From positions 18,471,987 to 18,535,986 of the forward strand of contig OZ316891.1 in the NCBI GenBank assembly GCA_973895155.1: a stretch of 64,000 nt of DNA, given 5' to 3'. The notes under the pieces were generated by a model. The model worked only from the letters and a program-made list of their open reading frames with translations. It ran no database searches and was not told the DNA's origin. The position numbers were made by a program, and so were the translations under genes. This document shows, in pieces, positions 1-36,659 of the stretch. This DNA comes from Marsupella aquatica (taxonomy: Eukaryota; Plantae; Marchantiophyta). Position 1 is the stretch's first letter; every line of letters starts with the position of its first letter.

Positions 1-614
1 TGGTGACTTGATGTGGAGGTGAGCTTATTTCTCAGTGAAGGGGGGCCCAGTCCACTGTACTCAGATAATGACTTGTGTGCAGTGGCTAGTATACCAGTTC
101 CTTTCTTTGTGCAAGTAAGACCTGTGAATGTTTAAATGAGTTTTTAAAAGGATAGAGGTTTTAATCCGATGTAGTTAGCCCCCCCCCCCCACAAGAAGAG
201 CTACAGCCCTGTCTATACTATCCCCAGTCGCTACTGAATTCTACCTGCTCCAACAAGTATTGAATGAGTACAATTTCAGTGAACAATATTTAATTTGTGT
301 GCTCTATGGTCTTCACAGTGGTTGCCTTTTTGAATAAACTTCTCTTTGACTCTTCTGAACATTTTTTCCAAGTCTGCCTGACACTAAACCCTGAACTGCT
401 TGCTCTCTGTGCAGAGCACCCTTAAGCCAAAGCCAAGTTATTTTTGACATTGCTTGTACTCCGTGAGATCAAGGTGGGCAGGACATCTCCTGATTTGTAC
501 TAAGACCTCTTACGGTAAGTACACTATGTCCACATACCATCTTTGTACTTGTCTGTTGCCCTTCTCCATACACTTCTTGTAATATTCAAGGTAATTACAT
601 GTGCAGATCCACGC

Positions 615-1328
615 ATGACATCGGGCATGGCACGAGCTGATGCTGCCTGGCTGGATCCAAAGTTTGCCCATAAAGAACACCTTCGCTTGGATCCCCCTTG
701 TTGTTTTGAATGTGATGAGGGAGGCACTATTTTGTTTTGCGATGGGCCTTGCAGTCATCATTTCCATTACTTAGTTCATGGCCAGCAAGCTCCTCAGGAG
801 CCTGATGGCCATGGGCCTGAGTGCACACCCGTTGCCATTTCTAGAGGGCATGATTGGGCCAAGGAGTGGCTCTGTGACCTCTGTCAGCAGAACCAAGGTC
901 GTTGCTTTGCTTGTGGACTACTTGGCCGAACCCTAAAGCCCACTACAGATGAGCCCCTTGTGGTCCAGTGTGCACAAGATGACTGCTCTTCTTTTTATCA
1001 CGTGGGTTGTCTGCGGACCATACTGAGGGCAAGGGAGTTGCCTCTCCTGGGGTACGCACAAAACTCAGATGCACATCCCGCTGCTCTGATATGCCCAAGG
1101 CATTATTGTGATGTTTGCAAGGAGTATCGGGATGGCATCTGGGAATTCATCCAGTGTCGTAGGTGCCCTCGTGCGTGGTGCAGGGATGAGGGACCATAGG
1201 CAGACAAACACCTCAAGAGAGGGGTGAAGGGTAGAGAAACGTGGGATATTGGTCCATGGCGTATGGTGTACTGCAATCGCCATGTCATTCCAGAGAGTTC
1301 TGATGTGCCACCTCATGATTTCAAATAG
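615..1328 (+). pseudogene. EDM2-like composite PHD-finger protein, copy 1 (one in-frame stop at 1197-1199)
   Basis: Cys/His spacing CCFECDEGG..FCDGPCSHHFH..WLCDLC..RCFACGLLG..CAQDDCSSFYHVGCL..ICPRHYCDVC..CRRCPRAW matches the EDM2/NSD-type PHD array. Reading through TAG gives ADKHLKRGVKGRETWDIGPWRMVYCNRHVIP...HDFK*, resembling the EDM2 RAW..L.NRILIYC..H.I segment. The start codon (615 or 627) is uncertain. Confidence 0.8.
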
Positions 1329-1424
1329 ATGATAAGCCTTAGTTCAGTTGTGTAGAAAACACTGCCTAGTACAAAGTATATTGAACTTGTCATGGGTTAA
1401 GGACTTCTGGAGGATACTGGACAC

Positions 1425-1612
1425 AAAATGGACTAAAGGGGTACAGTGGAGCACCAGAGTTTTTTGTTGGATGAAAATAGAGTGAAGTGCCAAGTTGGAT
1501 TCAATGGACTAAACTGAAATGGACTAAAGCAGGATGATTGTATGAAATGGACTAAACTGCCTGATTGTATGAAGTGGACTAAATTGTCTCACTGTATGAA
1601 GTGGACTACACC
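1425..1612 (+). repeat. Short tandem/dispersed repeat (core TGGACTAAA, ~30 bp period in the 3' part)
   Basis: GATTGTATGAAaTGGACTAAAcTG is repeated about 3 times at 1535-1610, with further TGGACTAAA copies at about 1429, 1505 and 1520. Confidence 0.7.
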
Positions 1613-2716
1613 TGTGGTTGAGACTGTTTGCCCTAGAGTAGAGCAACACTTAGTGGAGAAAGACCAGTATCAATTCTGATTGTATGATGACTGTTACAGC
1701 TGTACTCAGCAATATATGAACAGCCTGAATGGAGATACATAACAAAAGAACTAAAACACTAAAAAACATCACACTGACCTTAGAGGCAAGACCTAAAATC
1801 CACCCAAGGTCTTAAAAATGTTGTTGTCCCTTTGAGGGATCTGGCCATAAGAAGGCAAACTTTACATAATGTCTCTCAAGTTTTGTAGTACTGCCTTTCT
1901 AAACCTACAGCCTTAAGAACTCCTTCAACCCTTCAACCTGGGTCGATCTCTGAACTTCGTCATTTTTGATAATTTTGAAGACTGAGTGACTGTATTTTAT
2001 TCTGACTATTGCACAAAAACACAGTATGTGACATTATGTAGATTACATGAAATCCTTTGAGGCCCTTGCCCATATGTATCCTGGTTTGTGTGGGGATGAT
2101 GAAATGTTGTGATCTGAATCTATTCTAGTACCTGCCCAAAACAAACTGCCTTGATGAAGATGATCATTTCAACAAATTAATTCAAAAGTCACAGAATGAA
2201 GGAGGGGATTGTTGGACATTATGATTAATGTTTGTTATTGTATTCACTGTTTTGAAGGGTCTGAGATTGCTGACTACTGTGAACACCCTTGCCCTAAATC
2301 TGGTTGAGGTAGGCCTCTATTTGGTCTTGTAAACTTTTGTCATTTTCATTTGTACAATTCAGGTCTCCTTCAAATACCCATTGCCACTTACAGTATGAAT
2401 TGAGATTAGGTAACGTGTACCCAAGTAAATAATTTCTGATCAAGTTGCTAATATGTAATCTGTTTACCTTTTGTTGGCATGCATGTACTATTCTATTGGC
2501 AATGAAGGCTAAAGTGGGAGCTGCCTTTACCTCAGTTGGAGTACTGTACCTCAAATGTATGTCTATTCTTCACTTGTGCACACATTTGCTTCACATGACG
2601 GTCTAGAAGATGGTATGGAAGGGTTTTGGAGTTGTCTAGAACAAATTCATATGCTCTGCAAGATGTCACAGAAGAAAGACGTGCACCTGTGTTTTTGATT
2701 AGGTAGTGCTGCAATC

Positions 2717-5700
2717 ATGGCTTTTTCTAGCCAGGCTGGGTCACATAACACTGCACATACAATAGAGGCAAACAACCTGAGAAGATTACCTCTTTCCCAT
2801 CCACGTCGAATACAGCGTCGTGATGATAACTTATGGGCTCGGGAACAGACAGCTTGCTCTGGTAGTGTTGATCATAGAATGTATTGCTCTTGCATGGAAT
2901 GCAAAGGGATTGTTAAGACTACTCGAAAGACCAGTCGACAACATCTTCTTAAATATGGCCGCTACCCTGCCTGTCAAGTGTGGGTAGGAGAGGGTGAAGA
3001 CGTACTCTTCTGATGAGGAGTGGAGATCCAATTACATTCGTAACTCTGGTCCAGAGGCACTAAGGGCAGGAATGTCTCGAGAGGCATTCCACTCAGGCCA
3101 GCCATCAATAGATGTTGAAGAGCAGGTCAGAGTTTTACTTCAGGAGACATTGGCAAGAGCTTCTGAAGAGTCTGACGAATATGTGGATAATGATCCTCCT
3201 TTTGATATAGATTCAATGTTTCAAAATGATGAGAATGAGGCAGGTCCACCCTTTGCTGAGACCAGGGCTGAGGACACACCTGCAGCAGGGCATCCTATAA
3301 ATCCTGTCCCTCTGCAAGGGTCTTTAGAAGAAGCCATGAGACCCTTATTTCCAGGCAGTAAGACTGATGTAGTTTCCTTCATGTTATTGTTTTTAAACAT
3401 CTGTCACAACAATAGGTTCTCAAACACGGGAGTGAATGCCATGCTGTCTTTGTTGACTGAGCATGGAATGCCAATAGAGCACACTCTCCCTAAAAACCTA
3501 TATGCTGAAAAACAATTACTAAGAAAATTGGGTTTAGACTATGAGAGAATCCCAGTCTGTGAGAATGGATGTATGTTGTTTAGAAATGAGACTGCAGAGT
3601 TGGACAATTGTTCCAAGTGTAATCAGCCAAAGATGAAGTTAGTGGGGAATTCTTTACAGCCTGCGAAGGTCTTGAGATATTTCCCTATAATCCCTCGATT
3701 GAAGAGATTGTATGCCACTAAGGGTACATCTAAGCTAATGACTTGGCATCATGAGAACAAGAGCAAGGACAACATGGTGCGACATCCAGCAGATTCAAAG
3801 GCATGGAAACATGTGGACACAGAGATCGACCCTACTTTTGCTGTTGAGCCAAGGAATGTGCGAATGGGATTGGCACTTGATGGGGTAAATCCATTTGGGA
3901 ATAATTCTACTGCCTGGTCTACATGGCCAATCCTGCTATTGAATTATAATATCCCTCCTTGGCTTTCCACAAAGAAGTTCTTTGTCATGCTGGCTCTTCT
4001 AATTCCAGGTCCTGTGTCTGTAAGCGAGGAACAATTTGATGTATACATGCTCCACTTGTGGATGGTCTTGAGACATTATGGTCAGAAGGAGTAGATTGTT
4101 TTGATGTTCTACCAAGGCTAGGATTGCAGCAACAGTTCAAGCTAAGGGCTTCAGTATTGTGGACAATCAATGATTATCCTGCATATGGATTAGTCTCCGG
4201 CCAACAACATGCAGGGTACAAAGGATGTGTGGTTTGTGGGCCAAATTGTGTGGCACAAGGTTCAAAAAAGTTGGGCAAGTTACTGTTTGCTGGCCATCGT
4301 CGCTGGTTACCACATAGGCACTATTTTCGCAGAGAGGAAGTGGCAAAATACTTTAATGGTGAGGTAGAGGCATGAGCTGCACCATGTAGAGTGTCCAGCT
4401 CTGATAGGAAACGTTGGGGAGAAAAGGCCGCTAAATATGTGGAGAAGAAACCAGGGAATGCGCTGGATGATGAAAACTCTCCAGTAAAGAAGAATGGAGT
4501 GAAGAGGGTTATTGGATTATATAAGCTGCCGTACTGGAGTGTAAGTATCTGGTTCCCCATACTGAATCCCTTAGTGTGTAATGTTAAGTACCAAAGAGTA
4601 ACATTTCTGATTCTAACTTAGTTTGTATTGAACTGTGCGTCCAATGTAGAAACTTCTCATCAACCATGTTTGGATCCCATGCACTGTGAGAAGAATCTTG
4701 CACACAACATTGTGCACACTATTTTGGGGACAAAGGATACTCCTTCTGTTCGAGAAGACATGAAAGTCATGGACGTGCGGGAACATTTGTGGCTGGTTCC
4801 AAATCCAGATCCAAAAAAAGATTCAAAGATCATGCCGCCAGCCCCATACTGCCTCAGTAAGACAGAGAAGACTAAGTTCTTAGAGGTATTGTTGACCTTT
4901 AAAGGGCCCACTAGTTTCAGCAGTTCTCTGGCTAAATGTGTCACAGTTAAGAAGAAGTTATCAGGGCTGAAATCTCGCGATTTCCATCACCTCATGCAAC
5001 AAATCCTTCCATTGGCAACAATGGGATTACTTGATGAAGGTGTTCGGTTGGCCATAGCCAAAGTGAGCAATTTGTGGCATACCATCTGTGCCAAGGTTTG
5101 GGATCCCTCACAGTATGACTCTGTGATGTTGGATGTTGCATTCACACTCTGCCTTATGGAAATTCATTTCCCACCAAGCTTCTTTGATGTCATGACCCAT
5201 CTGTTGATTCATCTGGTTCAGGAACTAGACATCTGTGGTCCAGTGAACATTAGATGGATGTACCCAATAGAAAGATATCTAAAGACCTTGAAGGGTTATG
5301 TTCGAAACAAGGCACGTCCAGAGGCTTCTATGGCTGAAGGCTACCTTCTGGATGAATCTTTAGGATTCCTTTCTGAATACATGATCGATGTTAAGGGGAC
5401 AGGAATGAGAACATGGGACTTGGAGGAGAATCCTGGTGTTGCAGGCATTGTCTCGGAAGGAGCTGGAAAACAAATCACCTTGGAGTGGAATGATATGATA
5501 GCTATGCATCATTACATACTGGAGAATGAAGAGCTGGTGGAACCATGGTATAGATATGAGCATGGTTTATATTGTTAAGTTCTCTGTTGTTTATTATCAA
5601 ACAGAATTGAGTTTTGAGCAGAAATTGTGTGGGCCTAGGAGCTGACTGTCATTCTTGCCATGCAGGGTTTATGATGATCAAAAGGAGGCAGTTACCAAGC

Positions 5701-6506
5701 ACAGAGCAGATTTCCGGAAAGAATGGATGAAGAATCCAGGAAATCAGAGGAATCCTGTGCTTTATCCCTCTGATTTGGATGAGTTGCCTCCTTTTAGAGA
5801 ATGGTTTGAAGTGACAATTAGAAGACATAATTTTGAGAATGAGTTTGAACGAATGGTGTTGGCAGCGTATAGTGTACCACCTAGTTTGAAGGCACTGCGG
5901 TACAGGGCCTGCAGAGCCTATGGGCACCATTGGAGGACCATTCCATCACTAGGTTCCTTGATTGATTGTGACTCATCTGGGTTCAAGACTTTTGATTATG
6001 GGATGGCTTGTACATTCACTGAGAAGCGGGTCATTAGGTCAGGGGCAACAGTAGATGAATCTGTACAATATGTGGGGGTGTTGACAGACATCTTAGTGTT
6101 GAACTATGGGCCTCTGTTAAAGGAAGTGGTCATTTTCAAAGGAAGGTGGGCAAACCCATCTTGGACTCCCAAAGCCATTGCAAGTATGAGATATGATGCG
6201 TCTGGATTGTGGCAAGTAAATTTTCAGAAGGAGCTAGGTGCTTCCAAGAAAATGGACTATGTATTGCCACGACAGATAGAACAGGTGTTTTTTTACCCAA
6301 ATGATAAGGGGATTGCATGGAGGACAATCCTCCACAAGGAATCCAGGTCTACAAGGGTACTAGGTGATTACATGGAAATTCATTTCCATGATACTATGGA
6401 TGACAATACTAAGTTTCACATAGAGTTGGCAGAAGCTTGTACAACTAGACAGGAGCCTAGACCAAGTACTACAGACAAAGGAAAAAGAAAGTATAAAAGG
6501 AAATGA
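2717..6506 (+). pseudogene. CACTA TnpD/Tnp2 transposase (transposase-associated domain, Transposase_21, DUF4218, DUF4216), frameshifted
   Basis: Motifs: MYCSCMECK..RQHLLKYG; YERIPVCENGCMLF..CSKC; LRYFPIIPRLKRLY; RHPADSKAWKH; RNVRMGLALDGVNPF; WTINDYPAYG; HRRWLP; LDPMHCEKN; FPPSFFDVMTHLLIHL; RWMYPIERYL..LKGYVRNKARPEASMAEGY; YVLPRQIEQVFF. Frameshifts near 3000, 4060 and 4668; stop at 4373-4375; introns near 4541-4649 and 5550-5665. Confidence 0.93.
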
Positions 6507-8400
6507 ATGGTTTGAAGATACTGTACAGTCCAATTTCATTTGGTTGGGAGTGGGATTATACTAACATGGCATGCCATGGTCTAGCAGTGAATGCAGCGAA
6601 TACCTCCATATGAGGAGGAACGAAATAAGAAGGTAGCAGACAACAATAGAAAATTCAGGGAGATATTTGGAGAAAATTTCAATTTCATGTGAGTATAATC
6701 TTGCATGTTGTTTTGAATGTGCAAAGATGTGTTAATATTGCTCATCAGCAATATGAGTTGGTTTTTGGTACTTGTCATTCATTCATTGATATTCTTTGAT
6801 GTAGACTGGGTGCAACACAGACCGTAGGGCGCAAGAAGGAAACAAGTGCACGTCGAACTCCTACAAGTGAGGTTACCACACAGAGGAGACAGAGCTCCAG
6901 ACTATCAAGAATTGCCTCAGTGAGTATGGCAGAGTCTGGTGATGAGGGCTCTGAATCAGATTATGACACTGATGCTGAGTACAGTGAAGATGAGAAACCA
7001 GAAAGTTCATCCAAGGTGAGATTCCTATTACATTTCACCAACATTATGAGGAAACTATAAACATTGGTAGTGATTTTGTTTAATAACATTGGTTTTAACT
7101 TGATCTGGATAGGAACATCTGCAACCACCATCTAAGAGCTTGGCAGATGCAAAAGAAACCCCTACAAAGGTTGGACCTTCCATGAGTGGCATGGTGCAAT
7201 GTTACAAAGACCCTGTGACTGGCCAACTATTTGAATGTAAGTAATTTCAAAGATTTTCAAGTATTTTTCAATGTTGATCTATATGAATGTTGGATTCATA
7301 ACTCCAGTGGTTTGCATGTGTATAGTGGTGGTTCCATCAGCATCGATTGGGAAATCTGGACACTCTGCGGTAGTGACATCCAGTCAGGGTACGTTCAGGT
7401 AAGTCAAATTCAATGAAGCATCCTCCTATTATATTGTAATATTTCTTGTCCCTCATTTTGCAATAGTGGATGATCAATATTGGATGCTCATTGTGTATGT
7501 AGAGGGAAGAAAGACTGCAACTGAGCAACGCAGGGAATCTAGGCAAGCCAAAAAACAATTCCAGAGAACCGGTAGTGCAAGAAGGGCTGACAATAAGAAG
7601 GGAAAATTGATAACGGTAAGATTTTCATTGCACATTTCACATTTGTGACCTACAATTTGTGTACTCAGAAGCAATTGGGTGTTTATTTCATTTCCAATGT
7701 TGATGACTATCATTTATGGTGTTTTTTTCAGATTCATGACAATGATATTGATGATTCTCATCCTAATAAACCATATTGGATGGAGGAGCTACGTGCCAAT
7801 GTCTTGAGGCTTTTTCTCGGGGGCCTCAGTATATAGAGACCCCCATATCACGCTCGACATTTTGGACCCTTGCACCCCTAACTTATTAAGTAAAATTTTT
7901 ATTTCCCCTTCCCTATCATACTTAGAAGAATTCCAAATCCTAACATTTTGACCCCTAAAAATAGTTAAGTAAAGTTTTGTTGTGAATTAAACACCCCTTA
8001 GTAAGAAAAGAAAAGTTCATTCAAATGCGCACCTTATCTGGGTCTTTGTCAAGCTTATTTGAACCCTAATGTGCTCCTTAGGCATCCATATCTCATGGAA
8101 AACTGATAGTATATAGTGTTGATGCTTCCACTAAGAATACCAATTCTAGTAGAAGCTTCAGCAATATACAGTGTGAGTTATTCATATTGCAATCTGTTGT
8201 GCTTGTCTGATGTGAAAGGTAGGTATACCAAAAAGGAATTGAGTCAAGAATCTGAATGGTGAGTGTCCGTGGCAGAGGGGAATTGAACCCCTGATTGAGC
8301 AAGAAGCTCAAGTATCCAAATCTGCCACCCCCTAGCCTATTCCCCTAACCTATCCCCTATACATACTAAAACCACTACCATGACTATTGATGCATGAAAA

Positions 8401-11400
8401 TCATTCAACTCTAGACATGGTCTCCAAATAAGTATCCAAAGCTTGTTTATCAACTCGATCTAACACATACACTAAACCAATCTCTTGTTTCATGGTTAAA
8501 GTAACATTAGTCATCACCATTTCTATATCAATCCATTGTAAATCAGTTGTATCATAAGTGAATTCAACTTTGCTTGAGCTTGTTGGCTTATACCAATTGA
8601 ACAAGAACTGACAAATACTCCCTACGTGTCCATGAGGAGGTGTTGGTCTGTCAAGCAAATCAATAGCAGATCTCACTCTAGTCCATTGTCCTTTAACTTT
8701 TTGTCTCATCATCATAATCCGACCAAGCCAAAATTCTTTCTTTGCTTGCACTATTGGCTCTTGAATCCTAGATTTACCTCTTCCCTTACCTTTCCCCTTT
8801 TTTGATCTTGTAGAAGGGCCTGCATCATTAGCACTTTCAAATGCTACTCCACGATCACTCCCAACATCAACAAAACAAGTCGCAGTATTCGGATCACATT
8901 GTTTCCTCTTACCAAGATTATAGTATGCCACTTGCTTCACCCTTGTCAGCCTATCTTTAGACAAATGAGGGTTGCCCACTAGTTGACTCACCAAAGTTGA
9001 TTTGTAAATTGTTCTGCCCTCATATGTAACTGTAGGCAAAACCTTCTTCTTTTCCTGTAGAGGGCTCTGAAAAGACTGTGTAAACTCAGCTACAACAGAA
9101 GACAGCACATGACGAACCTCATGCCCCAAAGTATCTACCTCCACAGAATGAGGTTCTGGTATGTCTAACTCAACCCCATCCTGCAAAACATCATCAGGAA
9201 TGATTAGCTCATTTGTCAACCATGCATCAATTCGATTTAGATCTTCCTCAGGGTCTTCAAATACATGAAAATCTCCTTCTAGACGAGGTCCAATTGGAGA
9301 TCTGTGCTCTACATGCTCTTCAGAATTGTCAACAATAACTGCATCTGCTATTATAGCTGAATCTGGCCATGTCTGAACTTCCACATCCCAAGGGTGAGTC
9401 CACCATCGCTTTCTTGCTGCTGGCAGATCACTTCTGGGAGACATTTGTAACCTTCTAAGAAACTCTCTTGCTTCTTCAAAACCTTCTTTCAAGGCTGCAA
9501 CCACCAACTCATTAGTTTGCACTTTAGAGTAATCAAAAAGATTTGGTGCATCTTCACCTTCAAGTAAAGGATGAAGCTTGGCCCATACATAATCTTGCTT
9601 TTTATGTGATCGAGCTACTTTCAAGCCCTCTGGTCCACATTCTAATCCAGCAAGACGATTTAACCCAACAGCACTGTCCAACAAGGAGCCAAAATCATAA
9701 TTCCTCTCATGGCCACTCATTCCACCTACTTTGCTGAAAAATATCTCACAACAATTAGAACCTAACTCATGAAATGGAATACACAAGTGAGAAAACTTAT
9801 CACCAAATGCACATATAAGCAATACAATAAATTGACATGACATGTTAACATCATGAAAAGCCTGGATTGAAATCATATTTCTCTCTGTATGTGAAGCAAC
9901 ATTTCCACCTACAGCATGATCACCATACCTCAACCACAACCTCCACAATCGAAAGAACCAAGAAACTTTGCCTGCCAGCTTCACTCTAGTCCTCAGGTCA
10001 TGTCTCTGGGAGTAGAAAATGTCAATATAGTCTACACAAATCTGCAGATACAACTCTATCCCCAAACTTCGTTCATGCAACAGATCAATTCTTCCATGCA
10101 GATCTGCTAAACAGTCACGCACCTTTTCTGATGCTATCCTTTGGGGACCAGCCCAGTTTTGACGGTCGGATCTGTTCACATCATCCCAATTCAATCCATG
10201 TTGATAGATTGGATAGTTATTGTACACATTACAAACATGAAATAGGGAAGCATGTTGGTCTCCAAGTGCCATTATTGAGGACACTCGATCTAGTGGGTTA
10301 ATCAACTTTTTCCCATTGTGAGGCTGGTCTTGATCACCAAAACCATACAGGTCCCCATTAGGCAATATGGCAACTGAGTAAGGCCATCCTTCCCACCCTA
10401 TAGAAAATCTAGGGTAAGACCCATTAGCTCCTTTGTAATCTTCTAACATCAATTTCCTGCGCCTTGCATCACCATCACTAGCATGCCCAAGCAAAGGACC
10501 TACAGAGTCTCTGCAATGCAGATCCCAAGATTCTTTCAATTGCTTCCAGTGCTCTCTAACCCATTCTGCCTTGAACTTGTTACATGTTGATATAGCACAG
10601 AGGGCCAACTTTGGCATTCCAACATGCAATGGATTCACAATGACAACTCTAGCATACATTCCCTTGTTAAAATCCTCAAATGTATTTACAATCTTGTTAT
10701 AGCCATACTCACCATCACCTACAAGAATTTCTAATCCAAATTCACAGGTATGTCCATCCTTATGGCCACAAAAACCAATCAGAGTGTCATATTTGGCCTC
10801 CCACCTGCAGAGAGCCAATTTCAAATGAAAACCAAGTCAATTTCAAAGAATTGGTAAAACTATGCATCACAAATAATCTTCACCTTCAATTGCATCATTA
10901 TGTGCTATAATATGCAAACATACCTTGGGCTTTCCTTGATCCTAGTTTCATCCTCTGCAAGCATGATAGGTACATGTCCTTCAATTCCCAACATCTCCTT
11001 TGCAGTAGACAGAATTCGAGCCACCTCCTTGAATGTTTCTGGCCTAATTCCAGTACGAAATTGAACAAATTTTGCTCTATCTCGTTTTAGTGTCTTCAGG
11101 CTTGGCCCAGCTAAGTTCCTTGCAAAAACATGGGCCACCTGCCGGCCCCCATATTGAAACATAGCCTGAGCTATGGCTTTTGTTTTCTGACTATAACGAA
11201 ATCCCCTTGCACTTCTCTCCAAATTTCTACCTACATCTTTCAGAAAATCCCACAAACCTTCTTTTCCACCAAATGCACCATTCCTATGACCATTGACTAT
11301 ACTCCTTAGGAAAAGTCTCAAATCTTTTCTGTCTGCAGCTACTCCTAACAGTTCTTGCAATTTTCTCTTCCTAGTACTAAGGGCACACACTTTCTGAGTT

Positions 11401-12980
11401 TGTAATGCCAACAACCATCTCTCTTTTCTTCTCTTGACATTGAGACCATGCATCTGTGTGGTCAACTCTGGACGTGTCAAGTAGCGTGCATTCAAACCAC
11501 CCTCTGTGCTTCTTTCCCCTCTCTTTGCTAAAGCCTCCGCTTCCCTGTGCACCCGCCCACAAAAGTCATCTTCTAGTGTTATAGCATGACATCTACTGCA
11601 AGTTAAGTTCAGAAACCCCCCACCATACAAGGACAGCCTACAACACTGTTTATGCCTTAATAGTCCTTCTATATGTACAATAGAATTTGTATTAGGATTG
11701 TAGACATCAACAGAGACTGTGGCATTTACATCCCATACATGTCCTCCATGCTGATCCTGTAAGATACCCTTCACAGCATACTTCACATTCTTCCACTCTA
11801 CATATTCATCCCATATTCCCCAACAGAGCAAACTTAGGCCCATATCAATGTCTACAGACCCACCTGTGCCAGAGCTGCTGCTTGCATTGGAAGCATCCTC
11901 CTTGAAGAATTTTAAAATTGAATTCTGTGAAGGATGTTGATCCCTCTCATCTGGCTTCCTTGGTCTGCCCCTCTTTCCAGATCTCAATGCAAGTTCAGCA
12001 GTATTCTCTCTGGCTTCAACTACATCCAGGTGACCCCGACTGACCAAGTGTGTCCTCAGGTTGTGATCCAAAGTCCCCTTCTTACAAACCAGATCCATGA
12101 TTGCCCCACAAACCTTACACCTGACCTTATACAGGAACCACTTGTTTGCATTATTGGCTAAACCAGGCATAGGGGGCACATGAAATAGCTCATCATCACC
12201 TCCACACTCAGCATTCAAATTCTGTACTATCTCTAGGCCAGTTGCTATGGCCCCCTCATAATCAAACTCAGGCTTTTGTGCAAGATCTGAGGGCTTCACT
12301 CCAATCATAGCAATTCCCCTTCTCCTACAGTAATTGTCTTTGTGTTTAGCAAAGGCAAGGTGCTTGGTCTTAAAATTGCTAAACAGATTAGCAATTGACT
12401 TCTTATCTTGGGAATTGTCTGCCCTCCCATAGATAACTCTGCACTCAAGACACTCTAAATGGCCTCTCACATCCTGTCCTTCATCCCATGTACGAATTCT
12501 CCAATTATGATTTTTATAACCATTCTTTTGAACCCACTTCTCTAGTCTTATAAATTCATCATTCCAAACTTTGACAGCTGCCTTAGACATAAGAATAGAC
12601 TCAAAAGAAGCTCTCACAGGGGGAGCTTCTTGCAGTTGTTCACCTTGGGAAGAGTCCACTGCAACTGATTGGGTGATAGCAGCAGAAACCGATGGGAACT
12701 CTGTCCCAATAGTCGGCAAGGATCCAATTTGTTCAATGACAGCAACTTTCCCATCCAATTCAGACAGCTCAGTCATTTTCTCACTCTTGACCTTCATTCG
12801 ACCAGGAAGCCTATAATCCCAGAAATCAAAATCAAAATCAACCAAATCAGGAATTTGATTTCAAAAATCAGCTAAAGTTTGACCTTCTTTGAACGCCAAC
12901 ACAGCTATTGGTTCTTCATCTTTCCCATCAGTCACCACATCCCTTTTTTTGTGCAATAGTTTTACAAACTGGGTAGCCAT
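8401..12980 (-). pseudogene. P-element-superfamily-like DDE transposase, two exons (12980-10924, 10804-8401), ~1486 codons with a single premature stop
   Basis: The GT-AG intron 10923-10805 joins IKESP-R-WEAKYD in frame. Catalytic-type motifs occur in P-transposase order: LAEDETRIK, HASDGDARR, DQDQPHNGKKLIN (D(2)H), DRQNW, LGSNCCEIFFS. The ATG at 12980 is in frame, with only a TGA at 12861-12863 (likely from CGA). The N-terminus has two C2H2-like fingers and KRGRPRK. Confidence 0.8.
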
Positions 12981-13205
12981 TTCAATGAATTGGTTCAAGT
13001 AGGTTAAAGTATCAAGGGTTCTAAATACATTCACAGATACATAATGGACCTGCCATACACAATGAACCTGTCATACAACACAGTAAACAACACAATATGA
13101 AGCAAATTAGACATTGTTCAAAAAACCTTTTCAAAACCAGCTTTTAAGAAGACCCAAACAAAAACTTGCTGGTCATTGTTCACATGTGATTAGTCTAGTG
13201 AAACT

Positions 13206-13871
13206 CTAAGAAGTATGAGGCTGCGCAGGAACTAGTTCACCCTCAGCTATTCTATGCCTATGACAATAAATGAAACGCCAGCCTTCCACATCCTAGTGGT
13301 CCCTGCCCTTCACACACCTCCTAAGGTGTTTCACTCCCCCAGTTGTCTCATCATGACACCAACTTCGAGGGCACCTACGACACTGGACAAAGTCCTTAAT
13401 CCCATCCTTGTACACTTTACAATACTCACAAAAGTGCCTTGGGCACATTAGGCTCTTTGGATTCCCTGGCTGAGACCTTTGAGGCAGTGCTGCAACCATA
13501 AGCAACACCCTAAGGCAACCAGGGTGGTAATGAGAAAAGCAATCGGGGTGGGCACAATGGAGCACAAGAGATTCATTTTTTGTGGGGTGCTCAAATCTGC
13601 CAATGAGTCCACAAGCAAAGCATCTAGCTTTGCCAGCAGCACATAGTTGACAAACCCATGGTGCCGTCCAGTCATTGTTTTCAGGCAGTGTGACAGGAGT
13701 GCAAGCAGGCCCATGTATACCTTCTCCACCAACAAAGTGAAAATGTTTACTACAAGGCCCATCACAAAATACCACATCATCTGTCTCATCACAAAAGAAA
13801 CAACAAGGAGGATCCATGCGGTGGTGCTCCTTGTGGGAAAATATGTCAATCCTGGGCACATTAGAAGCCAT
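13206..13871 (-). pseudogene. EDM2-like composite PHD-finger protein, copy 2 (one in-frame stop at 13293-13295)
   Basis: MASNVPRIDIFSHKEHHRMDPPCCFFCDE..FCDGPCSKHFH..WVCQLC..RCFACGLIG..CAHPDCFSHYHPGCL..MCPRHFCEYC..CRRCPRSW..KGRDH*DVEGWRFIYCHRHRI..PHTS*. It is colinear with copy 1, and the stop replaces the Trp of copy 1's RETWDI. Confidence 0.82.
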
Positions 13872-15689
13872 CTCTGCTTGTTGGATAAGTTGCTGGATAG
13901 TGGATTTACCTATGCACACCACATTCATTTACTCAACATCCATGTTGTAGCCCCTCAACATTCATTAAACACTGAATAGCCAATTGAGGTTATTGGTGCA
14001 ACTACATAGCATATATCATAAACAAAAGCATACCTTTTATTGATCTCTTATCTGACTAGCAAGAGCTGCAACAAATGGTGTATCTTGAGGCTTGCTCCTT
14101 CCACAAGGTTCACATATAAACCCTGGTATATTGCTGAAGCTTCTGAGATGCTTTGACTACATCGTAAGCCAATCCATCCTGCAAGAAGCTCAAGCCAATA
14201 AATCCTGCAAGCTCGAGTCAAGATCTAGAATAACAATTAAATCCAAGAAGACCTAACACAAAAGATGCTTCGACTACATCGTAATTAAGCCAATCCATCT
14301 GCAAGAAGCTTGAGCCAATCAATCCTACTAGAATGAAGATCTATAATAACACATCCAAGAAGACCAAACACCAAAGATACAAGGAAGCGGGCAGGGAAGA
14401 ACTTGAACAAACAGTAATCTTGAGAACTCTGGAAAATAGCGGCATGACATGGAAGTCTCACTATAGATCATGAAATGAACTTTCAATTCAACTTCAGCCA
14501 GAGCCAGGCCAGAGATAATATACCTTGGCAATTATTGGCTCCAAGCTATAGACGTGGAACAAATTCTCTTGTTGGATAAGCTGCACATTCAACATAGAGC
14601 CATTCAAATGAATGTTATTCAAGATTGCATTGAACAAATACCACTATGAACAATCACTGTTGAACAACTTACAGTGAGACTAATCCAATCAATTAATCAG
14701 GATTGAAACAGGAGTTGTTGAGGACGCTGCTATGGCAAGGGCGCCTGCAATCCTACTTGCAAGAAGTAAAACACATAAGATAGACTAATCAGGCATGCAA
14801 AATCTCCAAGCAAAGAAAAATGTGAAATTGGCAATGGAGTCGATCCCACTGACATTTTCTCACAATCAGTTCCCTTCCAGCATTTTCAATCCAAATCTCA
14901 TAGACAAACTGCAGGGAACTCAGAAGTGGACCATTGAGATAGACTACAACATTTTCTACCACAGACTACAACAGACAATCGGGCTGACATTGAAAGGACA
15001 ACATTTTCTACCACAGACTACAATAGACAGTCGAGCTGACATTGAAAGGACCATGAGACAACTTTCAAAGTTGACACACACAAACAAGACCTGCCCTTAC
15101 CTTCACCAAGAGCCAACATGCAAGCGCAAATAGAGAACTAAGGACCAAATGTGATCGACTGTGAAGTTGACAATCAGTTCCTTCACCATTTTTGGGCATG
15201 AGACAGAGACAACTTTCACCAGCATCAGCGCAGTATGACAAACGGTGCCCCCAACAAAGCTTGATCTACCAAGTAATCAAATCACAATGAATCAAAGGAA
15301 GCAATTGAAAACTAGCGAGACAATGAAAGAGAACTCCACCACAAGTACTGTCTTGCAGATCGAATGACAGTGCATCCTACCAAGGTCAATCAGCTCCCTG
15401 GTGCCCGGTCCAATCTCAACATGTACAGTCTTGATTGATCGATTGACCTTCAGCTTGATTGATCAATCAGCTGCTCCAACACGGCCGCTACACCAAAGAC
15501 GACCCTTCAGTTGGATAGATCAGCTAGGAGCTCAAACACAACCGCAGCACCCAACGATGACCCTTCAGCTTGATATTTCAGCTGGTTGCTCAAACACAAC
15601 CGTAGCACCCAGTGGCAACCTTCACCGCAGCACCCAGCAGGACAGCCGCAGCCGTGACCTTGATCACACTCAGTCGCAACGCCCACGTT

Positions 15690-17080
15690 TGTCGTATAGT
15701 GCTAAGTATCAAAAGTGACTCTCCTCACCTAAAACCAGGGTTTCGATCCCTTTAAGAACAGATTTCAGAATGAATTGTATAACTTTTATCACTCCGAGTG
15801 ATTTAGAGTCTTGAGCTCTATGTTGACTTCACTTCTCAATAAAAAAAATCGAATAAACAAACAACAAAGTAACTGAACTTCTGATTTATGAATTAGAGAA
15901 GAAATGAGTAAGGATTTAGAGACTACAAGCTGCTACTGCCACTCCTTCAGAAAGGATTTGGGCTCAGTATAGACATGAAATCTATCTCATAATTCATCCA
16001 TCTCACTCTTCAAAACACAAAGGTTAATGATAATGGAATTCTCAATCTGATGAAGCAGAAGCTTTCTGATTGCAAATGAATGATATGATTTAAAATGCCG
16101 TCAACATGGTTTGACATCAGCGATACGCAATTCAGTCAAACTCTAAACCATATTCCAGAATCAAAGCAACAGTACTAACTACTCTGAGAATCAGAATTTA
16201 CTTCTCATTTATCATTAACTATTCTTGAATTGGCTAGCGAATCCCGACTCTGCAAGCAAGCCTAGCAGTGAATTCAATACGAGTTTCAGAAATCTGCAAC
16301 TGAATTCAATCACCACAGGAATCTCTTGAATTCAATCTTAACTTCAATCAATATAGCTTTACTTCCATACAAAACACTCACAGCATGCCTTGTTACAATG
16401 GAAGGAGGAGAAAACTATTCAGAAGACTCAATTCTGAATACAGTATTAACTCTATTTCTCTCTACTTCAAATGAGCATTCTACTCTGTCTTATAAGTGCT
16501 GGAATCCTAAAATGGAGGAGGTAAGAACAGTCGTGCCTTTCCAAGCTTAAAACTAAACAAGGGAGAAGCACAGCATAAGTACTTCAACAAGGGTGGTAGA
16601 ATACTACTTTACTAGTAATCTACTTCAAAAACTAAGTGTTGAGCGGACGCTGCTAGAAGCGTCGGGAGAATCTGGACGCTGCTAGAAGCGTCTTAAGTAA
16701 AACCAACGGACGCTGCTCACACTGCTCACAGCGTCAATACTAGGGTGGACGCTGCTCACAGCGTCGTGTGTTGAAGCTGACGCTTTCCACAGCGTCGGTC
16801 GAAATCCTCATAGAGTCTTGGTGGCGGTCGGGCACTGCCAAAAGCGTCATGAGGAGGTTGGACGCTTCCGCAGCGTCTTGAGTAAAAGAAACGGGCGCTG
16901 GTCACAGCGTCGGGCAAAGTACACTAGGAATCGTCAGGAAAGCCGGAGATGTCAAATATTTCTATAAGTGTCCAGAACAAGTAAATGTTGGCCGGAAGGT
17001 GTCTAAAGTGTAAGTAAATCTTGTGATATGCTAAAAATAAACAAGTTTCCAGAAAAAATTGCAGGGACACCCATACCACA
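15690..17080. mobile_element. Solo LTR (1391 bp), probably Gypsy-type
   Basis: Starts TGTCGTAT and ends ATACCACA (TG...CA with a short inverted repeat). It is flanked by a perfect 5-bp TSD ACGTT (15685-15689, 17081-17085) and has no internal gag/pol. Confidence 0.88.
16645..16911. repeat. Array of ~8 palindromic GACGCT-N6-AGCGTC units within the solo LTR
   Basis: Examples: GGACGCTGCTAGAAGCGTC (twice), GGACGCTGCTCACAGCGTC, TGACGCTTTCCACAGCGTC and GGACGCTTCCGCAGCGTC, separated by non-identical spacers. Confidence 0.85.
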
Positions 17081-20000
17081 ACGTTCATGCAATTGACTTC
17101 AGCCCCAACTTCAGCTACACCTCGATCATAGTTGCAATGCCCAGCCGAGCGCCCAACTTGAAGCAACACCCACAATCGCTCGATCACTTTCACTCCCAGA
17201 ATGACTGAAGCTGATCAAAATCGCAGTAGATCACGCTCGCAGCTGAACAGACTTGCAGCTGAATAGACTCGCAGCTGCCACCTAAGTTTGATCAACAGAG
17301 CCACAATGCCCATCCCATGTGTAAGCATTTCCTTCAAAAAAGCTCGAAGCAATACCCAGAAATGCCCACCGTGTGCAGCAAGCTCAGTCATTGCCGCAAC
17401 ACCCAACCTGAGTCTAAGCATTTCCTTCAAGAAAAGATCAAGACCCTGAGTGCAAACTTTGTCCACTATCTACGAAGGAAGCAACACAATTGAGGAAACA
17501 ACATGATTGAAGGCAGCAGCTTGCACAAGCAGCTTAAAATGAAGGAAGCATCACGATTGAAGGGAGCAACTCGATTGAAGGGAGCAGCATGAAAAGCAGG
17601 GAAGCACTCGACAAACAAAAAGGGATCAAGGAGGTCAGCCAAGAGGAAAAGTTCAAAGAAAGGGAGGAATACCTCAGTCTTCAGTTCGACCTGTGGAGTC
17701 ACGCTTTTGCCCTTCGCCTTCAAGCTCGCCCCGGGCCTTCAAGCTTGCCCCGACCTTCAAGCTTGCCCCAAAGTTCAACTTGCCTTCAATCTCGCCCCTC
17801 TCCCTTTGCCTTCAAGCTCGCTCTCTGCCTAGCCTTTTCCAAGTGCTCCGTAAGGGATCGCAGCACATTGATTGGGAGAACCTCAATCTCCCGAGTTGCC
17901 AAAGCCTCCCACTTAGTCGACCTCAATGAGCGCCCACCTCCTTCAACTGACCTTGCGGAACCACTGTCACCTCACATCCACCAACCTCAACGCAAGCTTG
18001 TGCAGCAGTCAATCGAACTCTCGTTCTGGCTCGCAACTTCCTTCACAGAATGCACTACTTTCCTTAAAAAAAAACAGAGGCAGCACCCAACCTTCGATGC
18101 ACAACTCATCGCGACTCATCTTGTGCACTCTCGTGTGCACTTCCCTTTGCAAAGCTAAACCCTACCTCCCATCCAACGGTCCAACATTTGCCCTAAACGG
18201 CTCATATTTGCCTTTGCCCTGATCGTTGGATGCCCCTCCAAATGGATGGATAGATGGCCCTGCGAGATTCACCCCCTAAACACCCACAGCCATCTACAAA
18301 GAATATGGCAGTTGCACCTGGGAGAATGGATGTCCCCGACACTTCCTACCCCAACCCTTCCCCTTCAATTCCCCCCTTGTGGTCCACCAAACCATCCACG
18401 TCACGCCCAAAAAATTCAAATTTTGTCCCTTAGTGCTCGTCTTAAGGCCACCATGAAACCCCCATTAAGCCCTATAACCTGTTTATATAAGGATGGGCCA
18501 TGTGGACCAATTAAAAACAGACACGTGGTCCTCATATATGGCCAGGCCAAAAATGCCCTATCTTCAACTAACAACTTATATTGAAGAAGTGGTGTTTATA
18601 ATACCCCTAATATTCTTCTAAGTTGCAAGATATATTTTTCAACCCCTATAGTTCTTCAACAAAAATTCTAAAGTCTTCCGCAAAATTGAATTAAAAAACT
18701 CTATACTTTTTCGCGCGTGATGGGTCGGAAGGAAATAAGTGACGACCCCGGGGGGGCTTTTTGATGTATCAGAACCTGATTGGAACAAACAAGATCCAAA
18801 CATAATTGAGGATGTGCAGAAATTGATGGAGGCAGATTGGGAGTATCCAGATAAGCAGTCAGTGTCTGACAAGAAATTTATTAGTCACTATCGGACATTA
18901 TTGAAAAGAGAACGTCACAAACTAAATACTTATTGGAAGGATGTATGTAAACGTGATCGCTCCAAACCAGGACCTCAATATGTTGACCCATTGAAATGGG
19001 CACGACTGGTGGATCATTTTGATAGTCCTGCTTTGCTTGCAAGGAGTGCTGTGATGAAAGCAAGGAGGGCAGAAGTGGTGAACAAAGAGCATTTTGGAAG
19101 AGGAGGGGCTGCTAGAGCAGAAAAAAGATTGGTAAGAATCTTCAGATGGTCCATCTCACTGCAGGTCTAGACTGTCATTTGAATTGAAGTGTTTATCTAG
19201 TATAGGAATAAACAATGACATGATGAGTTCTAATTAAATATTCCAATTGCTTTGAATGTGATTATGTGTTTCCAGAAAGCAAAAGGAATGACGAGCTCTA
19301 TTATATCAAAACTTGTGTCTAGTAGTCCAGTCCCCCCAGTGCAGATCAGTCCATCTATGGGCAGTGGTGAACATCGAGGCAGTAGTTTTGTTGGAATTGG
19401 ATCTGCACATGGATCAGCGGTATGTAATGAAAACCTGTGTATATATTCAATTTTGATTATCAGTTATCCATGATGTTCAAATTATCATTGATGATTGACA
19501 TTGTATGGTGTCTTTGTGTATGTAGACTCCACTGTCCAGGGAAACTACAATTGAGGAACGAGCTCGATTACTCAAGCTTGAACAGTCTGTGGAGAATTTA
19601 ACCAAGCTTGAGTTCAAAGTGGACAATTTGACATCTATGATGACCTCTTTCATTGCACAAAATCAACAGAATCAGTTTTATATGTAATTATCAAATGCAA
19701 TTGCTACTAAGGTGGTGGTTGAGCCTAAAGGTAGTAGCAGGAAACGTTCTCTTACTTTCTCAGGTGATGGTGATGGTAAGAACATACAAACTTATACTCT
19801 AAACATATTACATATGCAATAGTTTATTTTTCAATTTAGAATGAAGTTTTCTAAGCATTCATTGTTTGGTTTTGTGGTAGCTTCTTCAGGGAAGAATCCT
19901 GTATCACAGCGAGATAAATCAGATACTTTAACAAGGCAAAAGCCAAAGCCAAGTATGGGAGAAGCAAATTTGGGAGCACTGCAGGAACCTTGCGTTGTAC

Positions 20001-20904
20001 AAAGCAGCATTGGTAATGGTGAAAGTGATGAGATTGCTGTCACAGATGAACAGATAGTGTCAAATGCAATTCAGGAACAAGAGGCTACGCCACCTAGACC
20101 TTCAAAGAGATTCAAGAAATCAACCCCTATCACTATCTCACCTAGTGAACGAGGACCAGTTCTCTCCCCAAATCCAGCAACAAAGGTGAATTTGTTTTCA
20201 GTTGGCTTATGTTCTTAAATTGATGATATGCCCAAATCAGTACTACAAGACAGTATTTTATCCTAACAATTTTGTGTGGCAGTTTTCAAAAGGAGATGCT
20301 GTAGAAGTACGAAGCGTTGTGGATCGCTCTACAGTTGTTGCTAGAGGTGAAGTGACAGGGTTACCAGGAGAGGACAAATTTCATTGTGTCATGATTGAGA
20401 GTCCTTGGGTGTGAGTATCAGTTAAGGCAGTGTATTGTGGTGATGCAGCATTGCCAATGCCCAACAAAGAAGAGAAACAACTCTACTTACGGAATGTGTT
20501 AGGACATATACATTGTGGAATGCTAGGTTTCTTCGGAAGTGTTGAACATTTTCTCTGATCATGTAGAATAGAGAATTTTTGAATATTTTGGTTACCATTC
20601 TTTCACTCATGCGAGTGAAAAATGTGTACTTTCTATCCCTTTATCATAAAGACTTATGTTTTTTCAATTGTTCTATACTAGAGCTTGTGAATGTTGGAAT
20701 GTGAATTTCTGAATACAATGATGACTTCTGTTTTTTCAATTATTCTATATTAGAGCTTGTGAATGTTGGAGTGTGAATTTCTGAATACAATGATGATACG
20801 CAAAGTGATGTCTTTGTTTAGAGTTTTAAGTGGATTCATTGTATGTGATTTTGAATATAACTATGAGCTCTTCTTAGATACATCCCAAATGACATTACTT
20901 AAAA

Positions 20905-21530
20905 GCACCTTGTATGACACCCTCAATGACATCCTCAATGACACCATGTATGACACCCTTAACGACACCCTATATGACACCCCCAATGACACCCTATATG
21001 ACACCCTCAATGACACCCTGTATGACACCCTCAATGACACTGTGTATGACACCCTCAATGACACCATGTATGACACCCTCAATGACACCCTATTGACACC
21101 CTATATGACACCCTCAATGACACCTTGTATGACACCTTATATGACATTTTTAATGACACCATGTACGACACCTTCAATGACACACTAAATGACACCTTAA
21201 ATGATTTATTATTGAATGTGTCATTTATGACATGTCTGAAATGACATATAATGACAACCGTGTGTAGTTGCCACATGTTATAATATGATTTGTTTAAATA
21301 TGTGTCATTAAAGACATGCCTAAATGACTGACGGCCGTTCATTCAGTCATTTAGGACAACATGTCATTTCAGAAATATTGTGTCATTTAGGACTACCATA
21401 AATGACTGGTGAGAGTTTTAGTCATTTGTTTTAATTGACTCTCCTAAAAGACGAGGCAGGTATGACAGAAAAGCTCTAGTCATATATTGGTACATATGAC
21501 TCGTTTGTCAGTCCTCGTTCTAGTCATTAA
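20905..21530. repeat. CACTA subterminal repeats (12-bp tandem xxTGACACCCxx, then dispersed ATGAC/GTCAT)
   Basis: A (TATGACACCCTCAATGACACCCT)n array at about 20905-21200, followed by ATGAC and GTCAT in both orientations up to the terminus. Confidence 0.85.
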
Positions 21531-22661
21531 GGATACTATTTTCCACTAGTGTAAGGTCATGAGGCTATTAACCTCTAGTTCAAAACTTGCCAAAGTAGGA
21601 CTATGGTGAAATCTCCAAAATTTCCAATTATTTGAAAGTACATTCATTTGACAAATCTTCTACAAATGAACAGGACTCAACTACTAGAAAGCAAACTTCT
21701 CAATTGATCTTGAGAAAGTACTATTCTCAACTCAAACTGAGTGCTCATGGCACTTTAGTGGTCACATATGTCATCCAATGCCCAAATCAACTAATTAAAA
21801 AAAAATGCGCCTTGGGTTTACTAATGTTCCCGCTAACGTTCTAAAACTAGTTAAAATATCTCATAGATCTTAAGTGTTTTAATGCCTGCTAGCAGAGGAG
21901 CATTCTGGACCATATTTGCCGATCAAATCTCAAGCTAAAAGCCCTCATTTTTCTAGTCATTATGAACAAGATTGCAAAATCACATTTGGATGAGGTAATT
22001 TATCCTATACTATCACTAAAATTTGTAAAACTATCTCAACATAGTAATGTGTGTTACCAGATCATTTTGGACCATAATAGACTCTCACAACTCAAACTAA
22101 AGCTAATATTACATACATTATTTGTACTCAAACATGGCCTAAAAAATGTAGCTAGGGGGGTACACAAACTAATTTTTATGTGTCTTAAGAAGGTAAATCA
22201 TTTGTATTGAATGACTAGATTTTGAATTAGCTTATGGATCTCTTTTAATTTCAGTTGACTTTGAGCTCCCCTCGTAAATATTTAATTTTTCTTTTCAATC
22301 ACTCCTTAGTGATTTTTATTTATTTACTTTTCAATCACTCGTTCATAAATTTGATTTGTTCTCATGATGAAAGAAATAATTTTGAACAATGTGTATACAT
22401 GAGTGCACTAAGATACACTCATGTTTTTCATTGTGATTTTGATTATGGTTTTGATTGAGTTTACTGTCATTACCTAGAAGTGTATTTTAGATTATTATGT
22501 ACTTTTCTTTGCATGTGTAATTATGTTTTTGTGTATTATTTCACTCACTGTCAGTATTGATTAACAAATATTATTTTCTTGGCATGTACTTTACATCTTT
22601 TCTTTTATCATAAATAAACTAGATTAGTTAAATATCACTACCAGAGAAAGAAAAAAAAAAA

Positions 22662-33500: not shown

Positions 33501-33569
33501 AAATAACTACTTATGAAAATAGCATTCATGAGCACGTCAGGTGGATTCGCCATTATAGCAATGTTGGAA

Positions 33570-36590: not shown

Positions 36591-36659
36591 AAAGGCAGCG
36601 ACAACTTCTATGCAACACGCAGGTGTGATTGAGCCTCATCTAATGGTTGTTGGTAGTAT

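Follow-up and report, generated by a model that had tools for sequence, protein, structure and literature searches.

A stand-alone EDM2-type PHD gene in a P-like transposon and, probably, a CACTA element of the liverwort Marsupella aquatica: a possible histone-reader decoy

Two PHD genes of EDM2/NSD type

The window, by which we mean the whole 64-kb stretch of Marsupella aquatica DNA that was analysed, holds two open reading frames that encode PHD fingers. Copy 1 lies on the forward strand at 615-1328 (237 codons, with an in-frame TAG at codon 195, 1197-1199) and copy 2 on the reverse strand at 13871-13206 (221 codons, with an in-frame TAG at codon 193, 13293-13295). The first-pass annotation of this DNA had described them as colinear paralogues of EDM2 type, each on the same strand as a transposase and directly upstream of it. 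Both ORFs are present, with 116/232 identities between them (50%, BLASTP E 7e-82), and copy 1 lies ~1.4 kb and copy 2 ~0.35 kb 5' of its transposase. Judged by their translations, they are true paralogues predicted to encode a stand-alone EDM2/NSD-type PHD cluster, and both window copies are pseudogenes belonging to multi-copy families. Intact stand-alone relatives (P0003, P0004 and P0006) are found, with copy 1 67% identical to P0004; the ORFs of the family have stops of their own at a roughly equal position. Candidate 5'-UTR introns, proposed from sequence only, precede copy 1 (515-606, forward strand, GT..AG) and copy 2 (13910-14033, reverse strand). Locus scans with the PHD alignment gave no match in metagenome contigs or in viral contigs, and scans of viral contigs for the P-like transposase and for TnpD gave none either.

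The cluster consists of two and a half PHD fingers of atypical kind, whose Cys/His spacing is that of EDM2 and NSD proteins. Fingers 1 and 2 each retain 8/8 zinc ligands in all six family rows (6/6), and in finger 3 a Cys replaces a His and the next Cys is lost across the whole family. The finger 1 of copy 2 is without the GG pair that is present in 52/55 other rows, and because of this loss and the family's change of finger-3 ligands, histone binding is possibly altered or lost. The two genes match Pfam PHD_NSD (E 1.5e-9 and 9.9e-9), and their profile matches the first of the PHD clusters in NSD2/NSD3 (E 2e-17) and, over its whole length, EDM2-type proteins (E between 1e-30 and 1e-9 in most of the 150 matches listed), in keeping with the identity first assigned to them. 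The best structural matches of the PHD model are NSD PHD-C5HCH domains, some of them solved with H3 peptides, at a middling Z of 7.0-7.2. Searches of PDB sequences, with single sequences or with the transposase profile, returned nothing useful.

Outside the fingers the proteins are short (211-247 aa, PHD only). The RFD region and the methyltransferase-like (ELP) domain are absent from them and present in full-length matches. The NPPF motif, which we take to mark the methyltransferase-like region of EDM2, occurs in 68 of the 159 proteins compared and in 0 of the PHD-gene family. The PHD protein has no recognisable DNA-binding part that would give it family specificity.

The P-like and CACTA elements

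Copy 2 sits inside a P-like DNA transposon of 10.9 kb (7816-18752, reverse strand), as had been proposed. The element is flanked by an 8-bp target-site duplication, GGCTTTTT, at 7808-7815 and again at 18755-18762 (both forward strand), with two additional G separating its right end from the duplication on that side. Its terminal inverted repeats, at 7816-7830 (forward strand, the element's 3' end) and 18738-18752 (reverse strand, its 5' end), start with C(T/C)CGGGG and each match 12/15 positions of the TIR 15-mer of L003, an independent complete P-like relative that also has an 8-bp duplication. A joint omitting 7795-18866 was found in two runs, and removal of the element restores a reading frame. 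As the first-pass annotation had suspected, the P-like element lies within another transposon; it splits an exon of a CACTA.

The P-like transposase is encoded on the reverse strand by a first ORF (10905-12860; the N-terminal part with the first catalytic D) and a second ORF (8401-10836; the catalytic part with the SDGD, DxxH and E motifs), which are likely joined by an intron, since relatives have a single ORF of ~1520 aa. Neither ORF has a Pfam match. A Riccia homologue is 48% identical to the second ORF and its fold resembles that of Drosophila P transposase; the homologue P0162 matches Drosophila P transposase with a Foldseek E of 4.9e-9 (Z 26.0, rmsd 3.8 over 394 residues), the next family having a Z of 12.5. 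D257 and H260 of the P-type transposase are nearly invariant. The P-type fold, the DDE triad with D(2)H, the 8-bp duplication and the short TIRs uphold the original assignment. A MULE identity, considered from a possible 10-bp duplication, was ruled out by the P-type fold and the 8-bp duplication of L003. No Pfam match to THAP was found in the window ORF, L002, L003 or P0164; C2H2-like motifs are visible in this N-terminal part.

Six-frame translation of the 5' arm of the element (13872-18752) gave no Pfam domains. A solo LTR (15690-17080; TG..CA, 5-bp duplication ACGTT) is nested in this arm. A perfect 19-bp inverted repeat (8151-8169 and 14126-14144, both listed on the forward strand), the second arm of which is close to a depth drop, has no visible target-site duplication and was rejected as the outer TIR, the outer ends being those that match L003.

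None of the 81 related P-like loci (0/81) has a PHD gene, and thus the gene is a family-specific accessory among P-like elements. A distinctly improbable reading is that the PHD protein is an integration-targeting cofactor which would bind both the transposase and a histone mark, or be spliced onto the transposase. The PHD finger of RAG2 serves RAG1 as a histone-mark reader in this way, and in both elements here the gene is directly upstream on the same strand. PHD fingers within transposases are also known from Rehavkus (PMC6446971), and reader-TE fusions have been proposed to target insertion (10.1101/2021.11.30.470311). However, such a cofactor must work with two unrelated transposases, the complete P-like relatives L002 and L003 are without a PHD gene, and the family ORFs end alike with their own stop. 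A single insertion into another transposon is uninformative on targeting. The tether to heterochromatin that had been suggested finds no support here: its basis is a single insertion, into a region rich in repeats, and complete P-like relatives lack the gene.

Downstream of copy 1, as had been noted, lies a CACTA TnpD transposase (2717-6506, forward strand) with Transposase_21 and DUF4218; Transpos_assoc scores E 1e-4 in this region, under its cut-off. TnpD is frameshifted in the window copy, and contigs from other copies carry indels at 3000, 4048 and 4666. It is followed on the forward strand by exons at the TnpA position (6590-7815 and, beyond the P-like element, 18763-20520), so labelled from their position and with no Pfam match. 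A subterminal ATGAC array with the right TIR (20861-21551, forward strand; TIR 21539-21551, ..TTTTCCACTAGTG) closes the element at 21551, the TIR sequence being ..CACTAGTG. The left TIR is not in the 64-kb window. A CACTA word at 382 was rejected as the left end, since it neither matches the right TIR nor is accompanied by a subterminal array.

Read depth shows both PHD genes to be multi-copy alongside their transposases, as proposed, copy 1 in 4/4 runs. For copy 2, the depth of its bin against the transposase body was 2636 vs 2559-6330 in X1 and 18048 vs 18944-39601 in X3. For copy 1 (bins 651-1300) against TnpD (bins 2731-3900), it was 4112-11495 vs 1956-14298 in X1, 488-1059 vs 356-1170 in X2, 29467-40519 vs 42558-166294 in X3 and 1399-7212 vs 4775-8853 in X4. 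Copy 1 and TnpD are therefore of the same order, with continuous coverage between them, and the spacer is less deep than either gene.

Copy 1 likely belongs to the CACTA. It is quite unlikely that it is part of another repeat beside or inside the CACTA, for instance a decayed P-like derivative, so that one superfamily would own the gene. The unseen left TIR, the dip in spacer depth and the lack of a contig bridging copy 1 and TnpD among the contigs listed would fit such a repeat, as would the depth drop left of ~650 in organism A, in which the repeated unit may start near 400-650, because there the first 260 bases are the least deeply covered of the stretch, by a single long contig (X2 record 9, depth 84). 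Against this, positions 1-2700 contain neither a P-like transposase remnant nor a match to the P-like TIR at up to 3 mismatches, no left TIR or ATGAC array separates copy 1 from TnpD, and in organism B the repeat extends beyond the left edge of the window at a depth like that of the spacer.

Descent and selection of the PHD family

In the tree, the family of the two PHD genes forms one clade, apart from the 29 remaining sequences; its stem is long, at 2.39 changes per site. A DPP motif ahead of the first Cys is common to the PHD genes and to short liverwort paralogues, which terminate soon after the PHD cluster. The DPP motif points to the short paralogues, but a tree that unites the family with full-length liverwort EDM2 is also compatible with the data (p-AU 0.32).

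Between copy 1 and copy 2, dN/dS is ~0.25 (bootstrap 0.10-0.39; 197 codons), with 64/73/48% identity by codon position. Their DNA similarity is limited to the coding region, and the flanks do not align. Purifying selection acted, at one time or another, as the two genes diverged. A ratio of ~1 would have indicated neutral capture; the low ratio, together with the unalignable flanks, the intact relatives and a Trp codon at the copy 2 stop elsewhere (100% of depth at 13294 in 3/3 covering runs, X1, X3 and X5), speaks against a neutral capture of Pack type. Among the variant sites in the PHD genes, the 13 with the best support (4 synonymous, 9 non-synonymous) are too few and too selected for a measure of selection, and by themselves give no sign of constraint. 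With dS ~1.5, any direct exchange between the superfamilies, which we infer, would be ancient.

A related possibility is that the genes are passengers, two host PHD-only genes taken up by Pack-type capture after purifying selection had acted on them in the host. Stops in both window copies and a short EDM2-type protein of 280 aa in Marchantia (P0013) are consistent with it. It is nevertheless unlikely: no organism-named protein falls in the clade among the 18 named of 150 matches, other copies retain the Trp at the stop of copy 2, the ORFs are whole with no intron in the coding region, and the coding regions are deeper than the spacers, as expected if diverged transposon subfamilies retain the ORF.

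Proposed function and comparison with known systems

Our favoured, still tentative reading is that a stand-alone EDM2-type PHD gene resides inside a P-like element and, likely, a CACTA, and that its intact copies act in trans as a decoy that eases silencing. A liverwort EDM2-family gene would have been captured long ago and would later have been present in both superfamilies, with the PHD gene presumably expressed from its own promoter. Intact copies would then act in trans as a putative enzyme-free binder of the histone H3 tail, and competition with host EDM2-type readers could ease the silencing of the elements. We prefer the decoy to the tether, since it is easier to see how two unrelated transposases could have one module in common if that module need bind neither of them. 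In Arabidopsis, EDM2 loss de-represses the DNA transposon Mu1 (PMC3632883), and DNA transposons could therefore plausibly gain from a competitor. EDM2 loss also tightens the silencing of COPIA4 and many genes via IBM1 (PMC3632883, PMC7529245), and the elements could therefore suffer from a decoy as well. Marchantia transposons are frequently marked by H3K27me3, not H3K9 methylation (10.1101/827881), which counts against the decoy. The long stem, the changed finger-3 ligands and the lack of RFD and methyltransferase-like parts mean that EDM2 biology, including the binding of histone tails marked by H3K9me2, is not simply transferable.

These missing parts weigh also on the rather unlikely reading in which the PHD protein mimics EDM2 as an adaptor, binding silenced transposon chromatin and recruiting TnpA or host machinery of ASI1/AIPP1 type, which would allow transposase mRNA to be produced at full length. 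EDM2 acts in this manner at intronic heterochromatin (PMC7472560, PMC7529245), and both PHD genes lie just 5' of intron-containing transposase genes. However, the PHD proteins are without the regions that full-length matches carry beyond the fingers, and a literature search for the AIPP1-binding region of EDM2 gave nothing. An extension of the decoy reading, itself somewhat doubtful, is that stand-alone readers derived from EDM2 form a long-lived pool on which several superfamilies of liverwort DNA transposons draw. These counter-silencers, the first to be reader-only, would act on chromatin marks and not on DNA motifs, and would pass from CACTA to P-like elements or the reverse. Several short PHD proteins without a name (P0119, P0141, P0144, P0146 and P0043) would belong to the pool.

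The plant transposon anti-silencers in the literature consulted, such as VANC, recognise DNA motifs of their own family (PMC13547354, PMC13317346). If the decoy reading is true, two unrelated superfamilies that keep a reader-only PHD protein would have taken another route, which targets the step at which the host reads histones, and accessory genes would be shown to move between superfamilies. Intact natural copies, the small size of the protein and the tractability of Marchantia, a host that has an EDM2 family itself, make the idea directly testable. The locus further defines a clade of P-type transposons in liverworts that is unrecognised by Pfam.

Among known systems, EDM2 and EDM2-like proteins (Arabidopsis EDM2/ELP1; Marchantia BBM97127.1 and BBN00574.1) have the whole-length PHD cluster in common with the genes described here, which differ in being multi-copy and in transposons, at ~25-33% identity, with changed finger-3 ligands and no RFD/methyltransferase-like region. 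The PHD clusters of NSD1/2/3 are alike in profile (the first cluster of NSD2/3) and in the structure of the PHD-C5HCH tandem (Z ~7), whereas the proteins here stand alone with no SET or PWWP domain. The P superfamily (Drosophila P element, 1360, Galileo; PMC3698922) shares the fold, the DDE with DxxH, short TIRs and 8-bp duplications; the present element differs in its ~1500-aa transposase with no THAP or other Pfam match, its land-plant host and its additional PHD gene. Fusions of PHD or Chromo readers to transposons (Grau-Bove et al., 10.1101/2021.11.30.470311; Rehavkus, PMC6446971) likewise involve a transposon-captured reader domain, in one ORF there and as a separate gene here; the main text of 10.1101/2021.11.30.470311 does not mention EDM2, Marchantia or CACTA. 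Plant transposon accessory proteins derived from host chromatin factors include VANC (from MAIN-like proteins), the KAONASHI Ulp1 and the En/Spm NDX-B domain (PMC13547354, PMC13317346), and 'PHD' has 0 occurrences in the main text of these two papers. Like the PHD genes, these are separate genes of DNA transposons, of host nuclear-factor origin and kept by selection, and the purifying selection typical of VANC-like anti-silencers is seen in the PHD genes as the low dN/dS between copies. The PHD genes differ from VANC-type accessories in their fold, in their occurrence in two superfamilies, in having no sequence-specific DNA-binding part and in that their function is putative. The pair is a variant of the transposon accessory chromatin genes, and a reader-only decoy is its likeliest role.

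The PHD genes and their relatives

PHD genes of the EDM2 type occur just twice in the 64-kb window, as copy 1 (615-1328, + strand) and copy 2 (13871-13206, - strand), each with a single in-frame TAG. The first-pass annotation described these ORFs as paralogues, and with stops read as X they are 50% identical (116/232, E 7e-82); PHD_NSD is found by Pfam in both (E 1.5e-9 and 9.9e-9, respectively), and no alignment was obtained between their flanks. Identity at codon positions 1, 2 and 3 is 64, 73 and 48% (197 aligned codons), with dN of 0.39 and a dS of 1.52 that is close to saturation, giving a ratio of ~0.25 (NG86, bootstrap 0.10-0.39), in keeping with the earlier suggestion that the module had been kept. 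Passenger capture of the PHD genes, which the stop in each copy would fit, is rather unlikely.

All zinc ligands of fingers 1 and 2 are present in the six aligned sequences of the window family, and finger 1 of copy 2 is without the GG pair. Finger 3 of the family carries C at a position that is H in 52 of 55 other sequences, and the next C is lost; a conserved His lies further along and, at a guess from the alignment, might substitute for it. The family also retains an acidic residue before finger 1, C-D after it, and W-x-C, which build the H3-tail site in other PHD fingers. The model of P0003, an intact stand-alone relative of 226 aa, best matches NSD PHD-C5HCH tandems (pLDDT 80; E 1e-3 to 6e-3, Z ~7), some of them solved with H3 peptides, and a profile built on the family picks up the first PHD cluster of NSD2/3 (E 2e-17). 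P0004/P0006 (247 aa; 67% to copy 1) are likewise intact and stand-alone.

Searched with a profile, 1.84 billion representatives yielded 257 matches, of which the best 150 were considered, 18 of them by organism name; after the window family itself, matches were EDM2-type proteins (30 scanned), and ten of the top ones include eight liverwort proteins and one from Artemisia. A DPP motif is common to the family and to liverwort paralogues ending shortly past the PHD cluster. Such EDM2 paralogues (P0008-P0011, P0013, P0014) are without the C-terminal methyltransferase-like region, and our literature search found no paper dedicated to them. In a tree of a 33-sequence subset, the window family forms one clade (100/99; stem 2.39) that adjoins four more PHD proteins, likewise short and stand-alone (94/86), a grouping that is possibly long-branch attraction. 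The picture was the same with 154 of 159 sequences, and a topology constrained to place the family with full-length liverwort EDM2 was not rejected (p-AU 0.32). The gene would derive, by capture, from an EDM2-family gene of a liverwort and then have persisted as transposon cargo. Other EDM2-type PHD proteins that are short, divergent and stand-alone (P0119, P0141, P0144, P0146, P0154, P0036, P0043) may also be TE-borne.

The P-like element around copy 2

Copy 2 lies in an insertion at 7816-18752, with the 8-bp duplication GGCTTTTT at both sides and transposase ORFs at 12860-10905 and 10836-8401 (- strand), which are without Pfam match. A homologue from Riccia that shares 48% identity with the second ORF was modelled (mean pLDDT 77) and matches Drosophila P transposase (Foldseek E 4.9e-9, Z 26.0, rmsd 3.8, 394 residues), with the next family at Z 12.5; named Riccia proteins make up 21 of 44 transposase homologues. 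We gathered 81 loci with related transposases and examined 23 for TIR and TSD, of which one, L003, is a complete element (6.1 kb, 20-bp TIR, 8-bp TSD). The opening 15 bases of L003 recur in the window at 7816 and at 18738-18752, with 12/15 identical in each case, a pattern found four times in 64 kb at this level against 0.64 expected. The insertion interrupts an exon downstream of the CACTA TnpD, in silico excision regains a single reading frame, and it is bypassed in contigs from two of four public runs (joint 7794 to 18867). Fold, TSD and L003-matching ends thus place copy 2 within a genuine P-type element that is itself nested in the CACTA, as the first reading had it.

The P-type clade (window 7816-18752, L002 308-9065, L003 192-6287) has ~1500-aa transposases without Pfam match, C(T/C)CGGGG TIRs and 8-bp TSDs. 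Many Riccia copies are annotated as hypothetical genes, more distant relatives occur in contigs, some titled marine, and no paper on P elements in liverworts emerged from our literature search (on the superfamily, see PMC3698922). The PHD gene was found in none of the 81 loci (best E 0.28), many of which are too short to judge; since L002 and L003, which extend TIR to TIR, are both without it, it is a family-specific accessory rather than core to the clade. Within the L002 TIRs, downstream of the transposase, a 174-aa ORF (7003-7527) has no Pfam match and no counterpart in the other loci or the window.

Contigs from public runs were aligned to the window, their summed depth serving for contrast only, as it is not copy number. 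Depth over copy 2 is about that of the transposase body (run X1, 2636 vs 2559-6330; X3, 18048 vs 18944-39601) and drops past 14008 (542 and 1965), so the 5' arm is less widely shared among copies than the body. All aligned depth in X1, X3 and X5 carries a Trp codon at 13294, and the stop of copy 2 is therefore private to the window's copy. The 5' arm also holds a solo LTR (15690-17080; intact TG..CA ends, 5-bp TSD), over which X1 has its deepest bins in the window. A perfect 19-bp inverted repeat (8151-8169/14126-14144) without TSD flanks transposase and copy 2, the latter arm lying near the depth drop; it may mark the end of an older core element or serve as a binding site within the present one.

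Copy 1 and the CACTA element

The CACTA comprises TnpD (2717-6506, + strand; Pfam) and a right TIR ending at 21551, preceded by an ATGAC repeat array. The earlier reading placed copy 1 inside it. Cover over copy 1 comes from many distinct contigs (12, 7, 29 and 2 carry one variant at position 737), with depths similar in magnitude to those over TnpD in all four runs, and cover of the spacer is continuous but shallower. In organism B the repeat extends beyond the window's left edge, and in organism A a single long shallow contig covers the first 260 bases. Between position 1 and TnpD, no left TIR, no P-like TIR and no remnant of a P-like transposase was found, and no contig among those listed bridges copy 1 and TnpD. 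Given the TnpD-like depth, copy 1 likely belongs inside the CACTA; that it is not CACTA cargo, as the missing left TIR and bridge might suggest, is quite unlikely.

Elsewhere, the window carries a single-ORF fasciclin-domain gene (29780-30556, - strand; the only named one of eight matches is from Calypogeia fissa, at 56%) and repeat arrays, tandem or dispersed, at 33572-33992, 36002-36603 and 36646-37412 (units of ~83-85 bp, ~200 bp and 19 bp). With the Riccia share of the transposase homologues, the fasciclin match points to a likely liverwort host. Two overlapping ORFs (49972-51433, - strand; no Pfam match for the one scanned) resemble the C-terminal portion of a non-LTR retrotransposon.

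Possible role and known systems

A whole, selected, multi-copy PHD-only gene lies inside one DNA transposon and is linked to another. Tentatively, and at somewhat less than even chances, we favour its protein as a putative trans-acting decoy, since it is without EDM2's other domains and would not have to suit two transposases that are unrelated, and since EDM2 loss in Arabidopsis de-represses the DNA transposon Mu1 (PMC3632883). Against this, EDM2 loss tightens silencing at COPIA4 and, via IBM1, at many genes (PMC3632883, PMC7529245; see also PMC7472560), and how the protein could favour its own family is not evident. An EDM2 mimic recruiting ASI1/AIPP1-type machinery is unlikely for a protein of PHD fingers only, and a cofactor targeting integration, to be shared by two unrelated transposases, is the least probable role. 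H3K9me2, named in the first reading as what EDM2 reads, is at most a candidate mark for this protein, and H3K27me3 is found on many Marchantia transposons (10.1101/827881).

Our literature search, thin on subscription papers and without Repbase, turned up neither a transposon-borne gene for EDM2-type PHD fingers alone nor such a gene common to CACTA and P-like elements. VANC, from MAIN-like proteins, the NDX-B domain in En/Spm and KAONASHI Ulp1 are TE accessories of host chromatin-factor origin (PMC13547354, PMC13317346); the PHD gene would resemble them in this. TE proteins fused to PHD or Chromo domains are also on record (10.1101/2021.11.30.470311; PMC6446971). Host-derived accessory genes and PHD fusions are known already, and what would be new is an EDM2-type PHD gene that stands alone within transposons.
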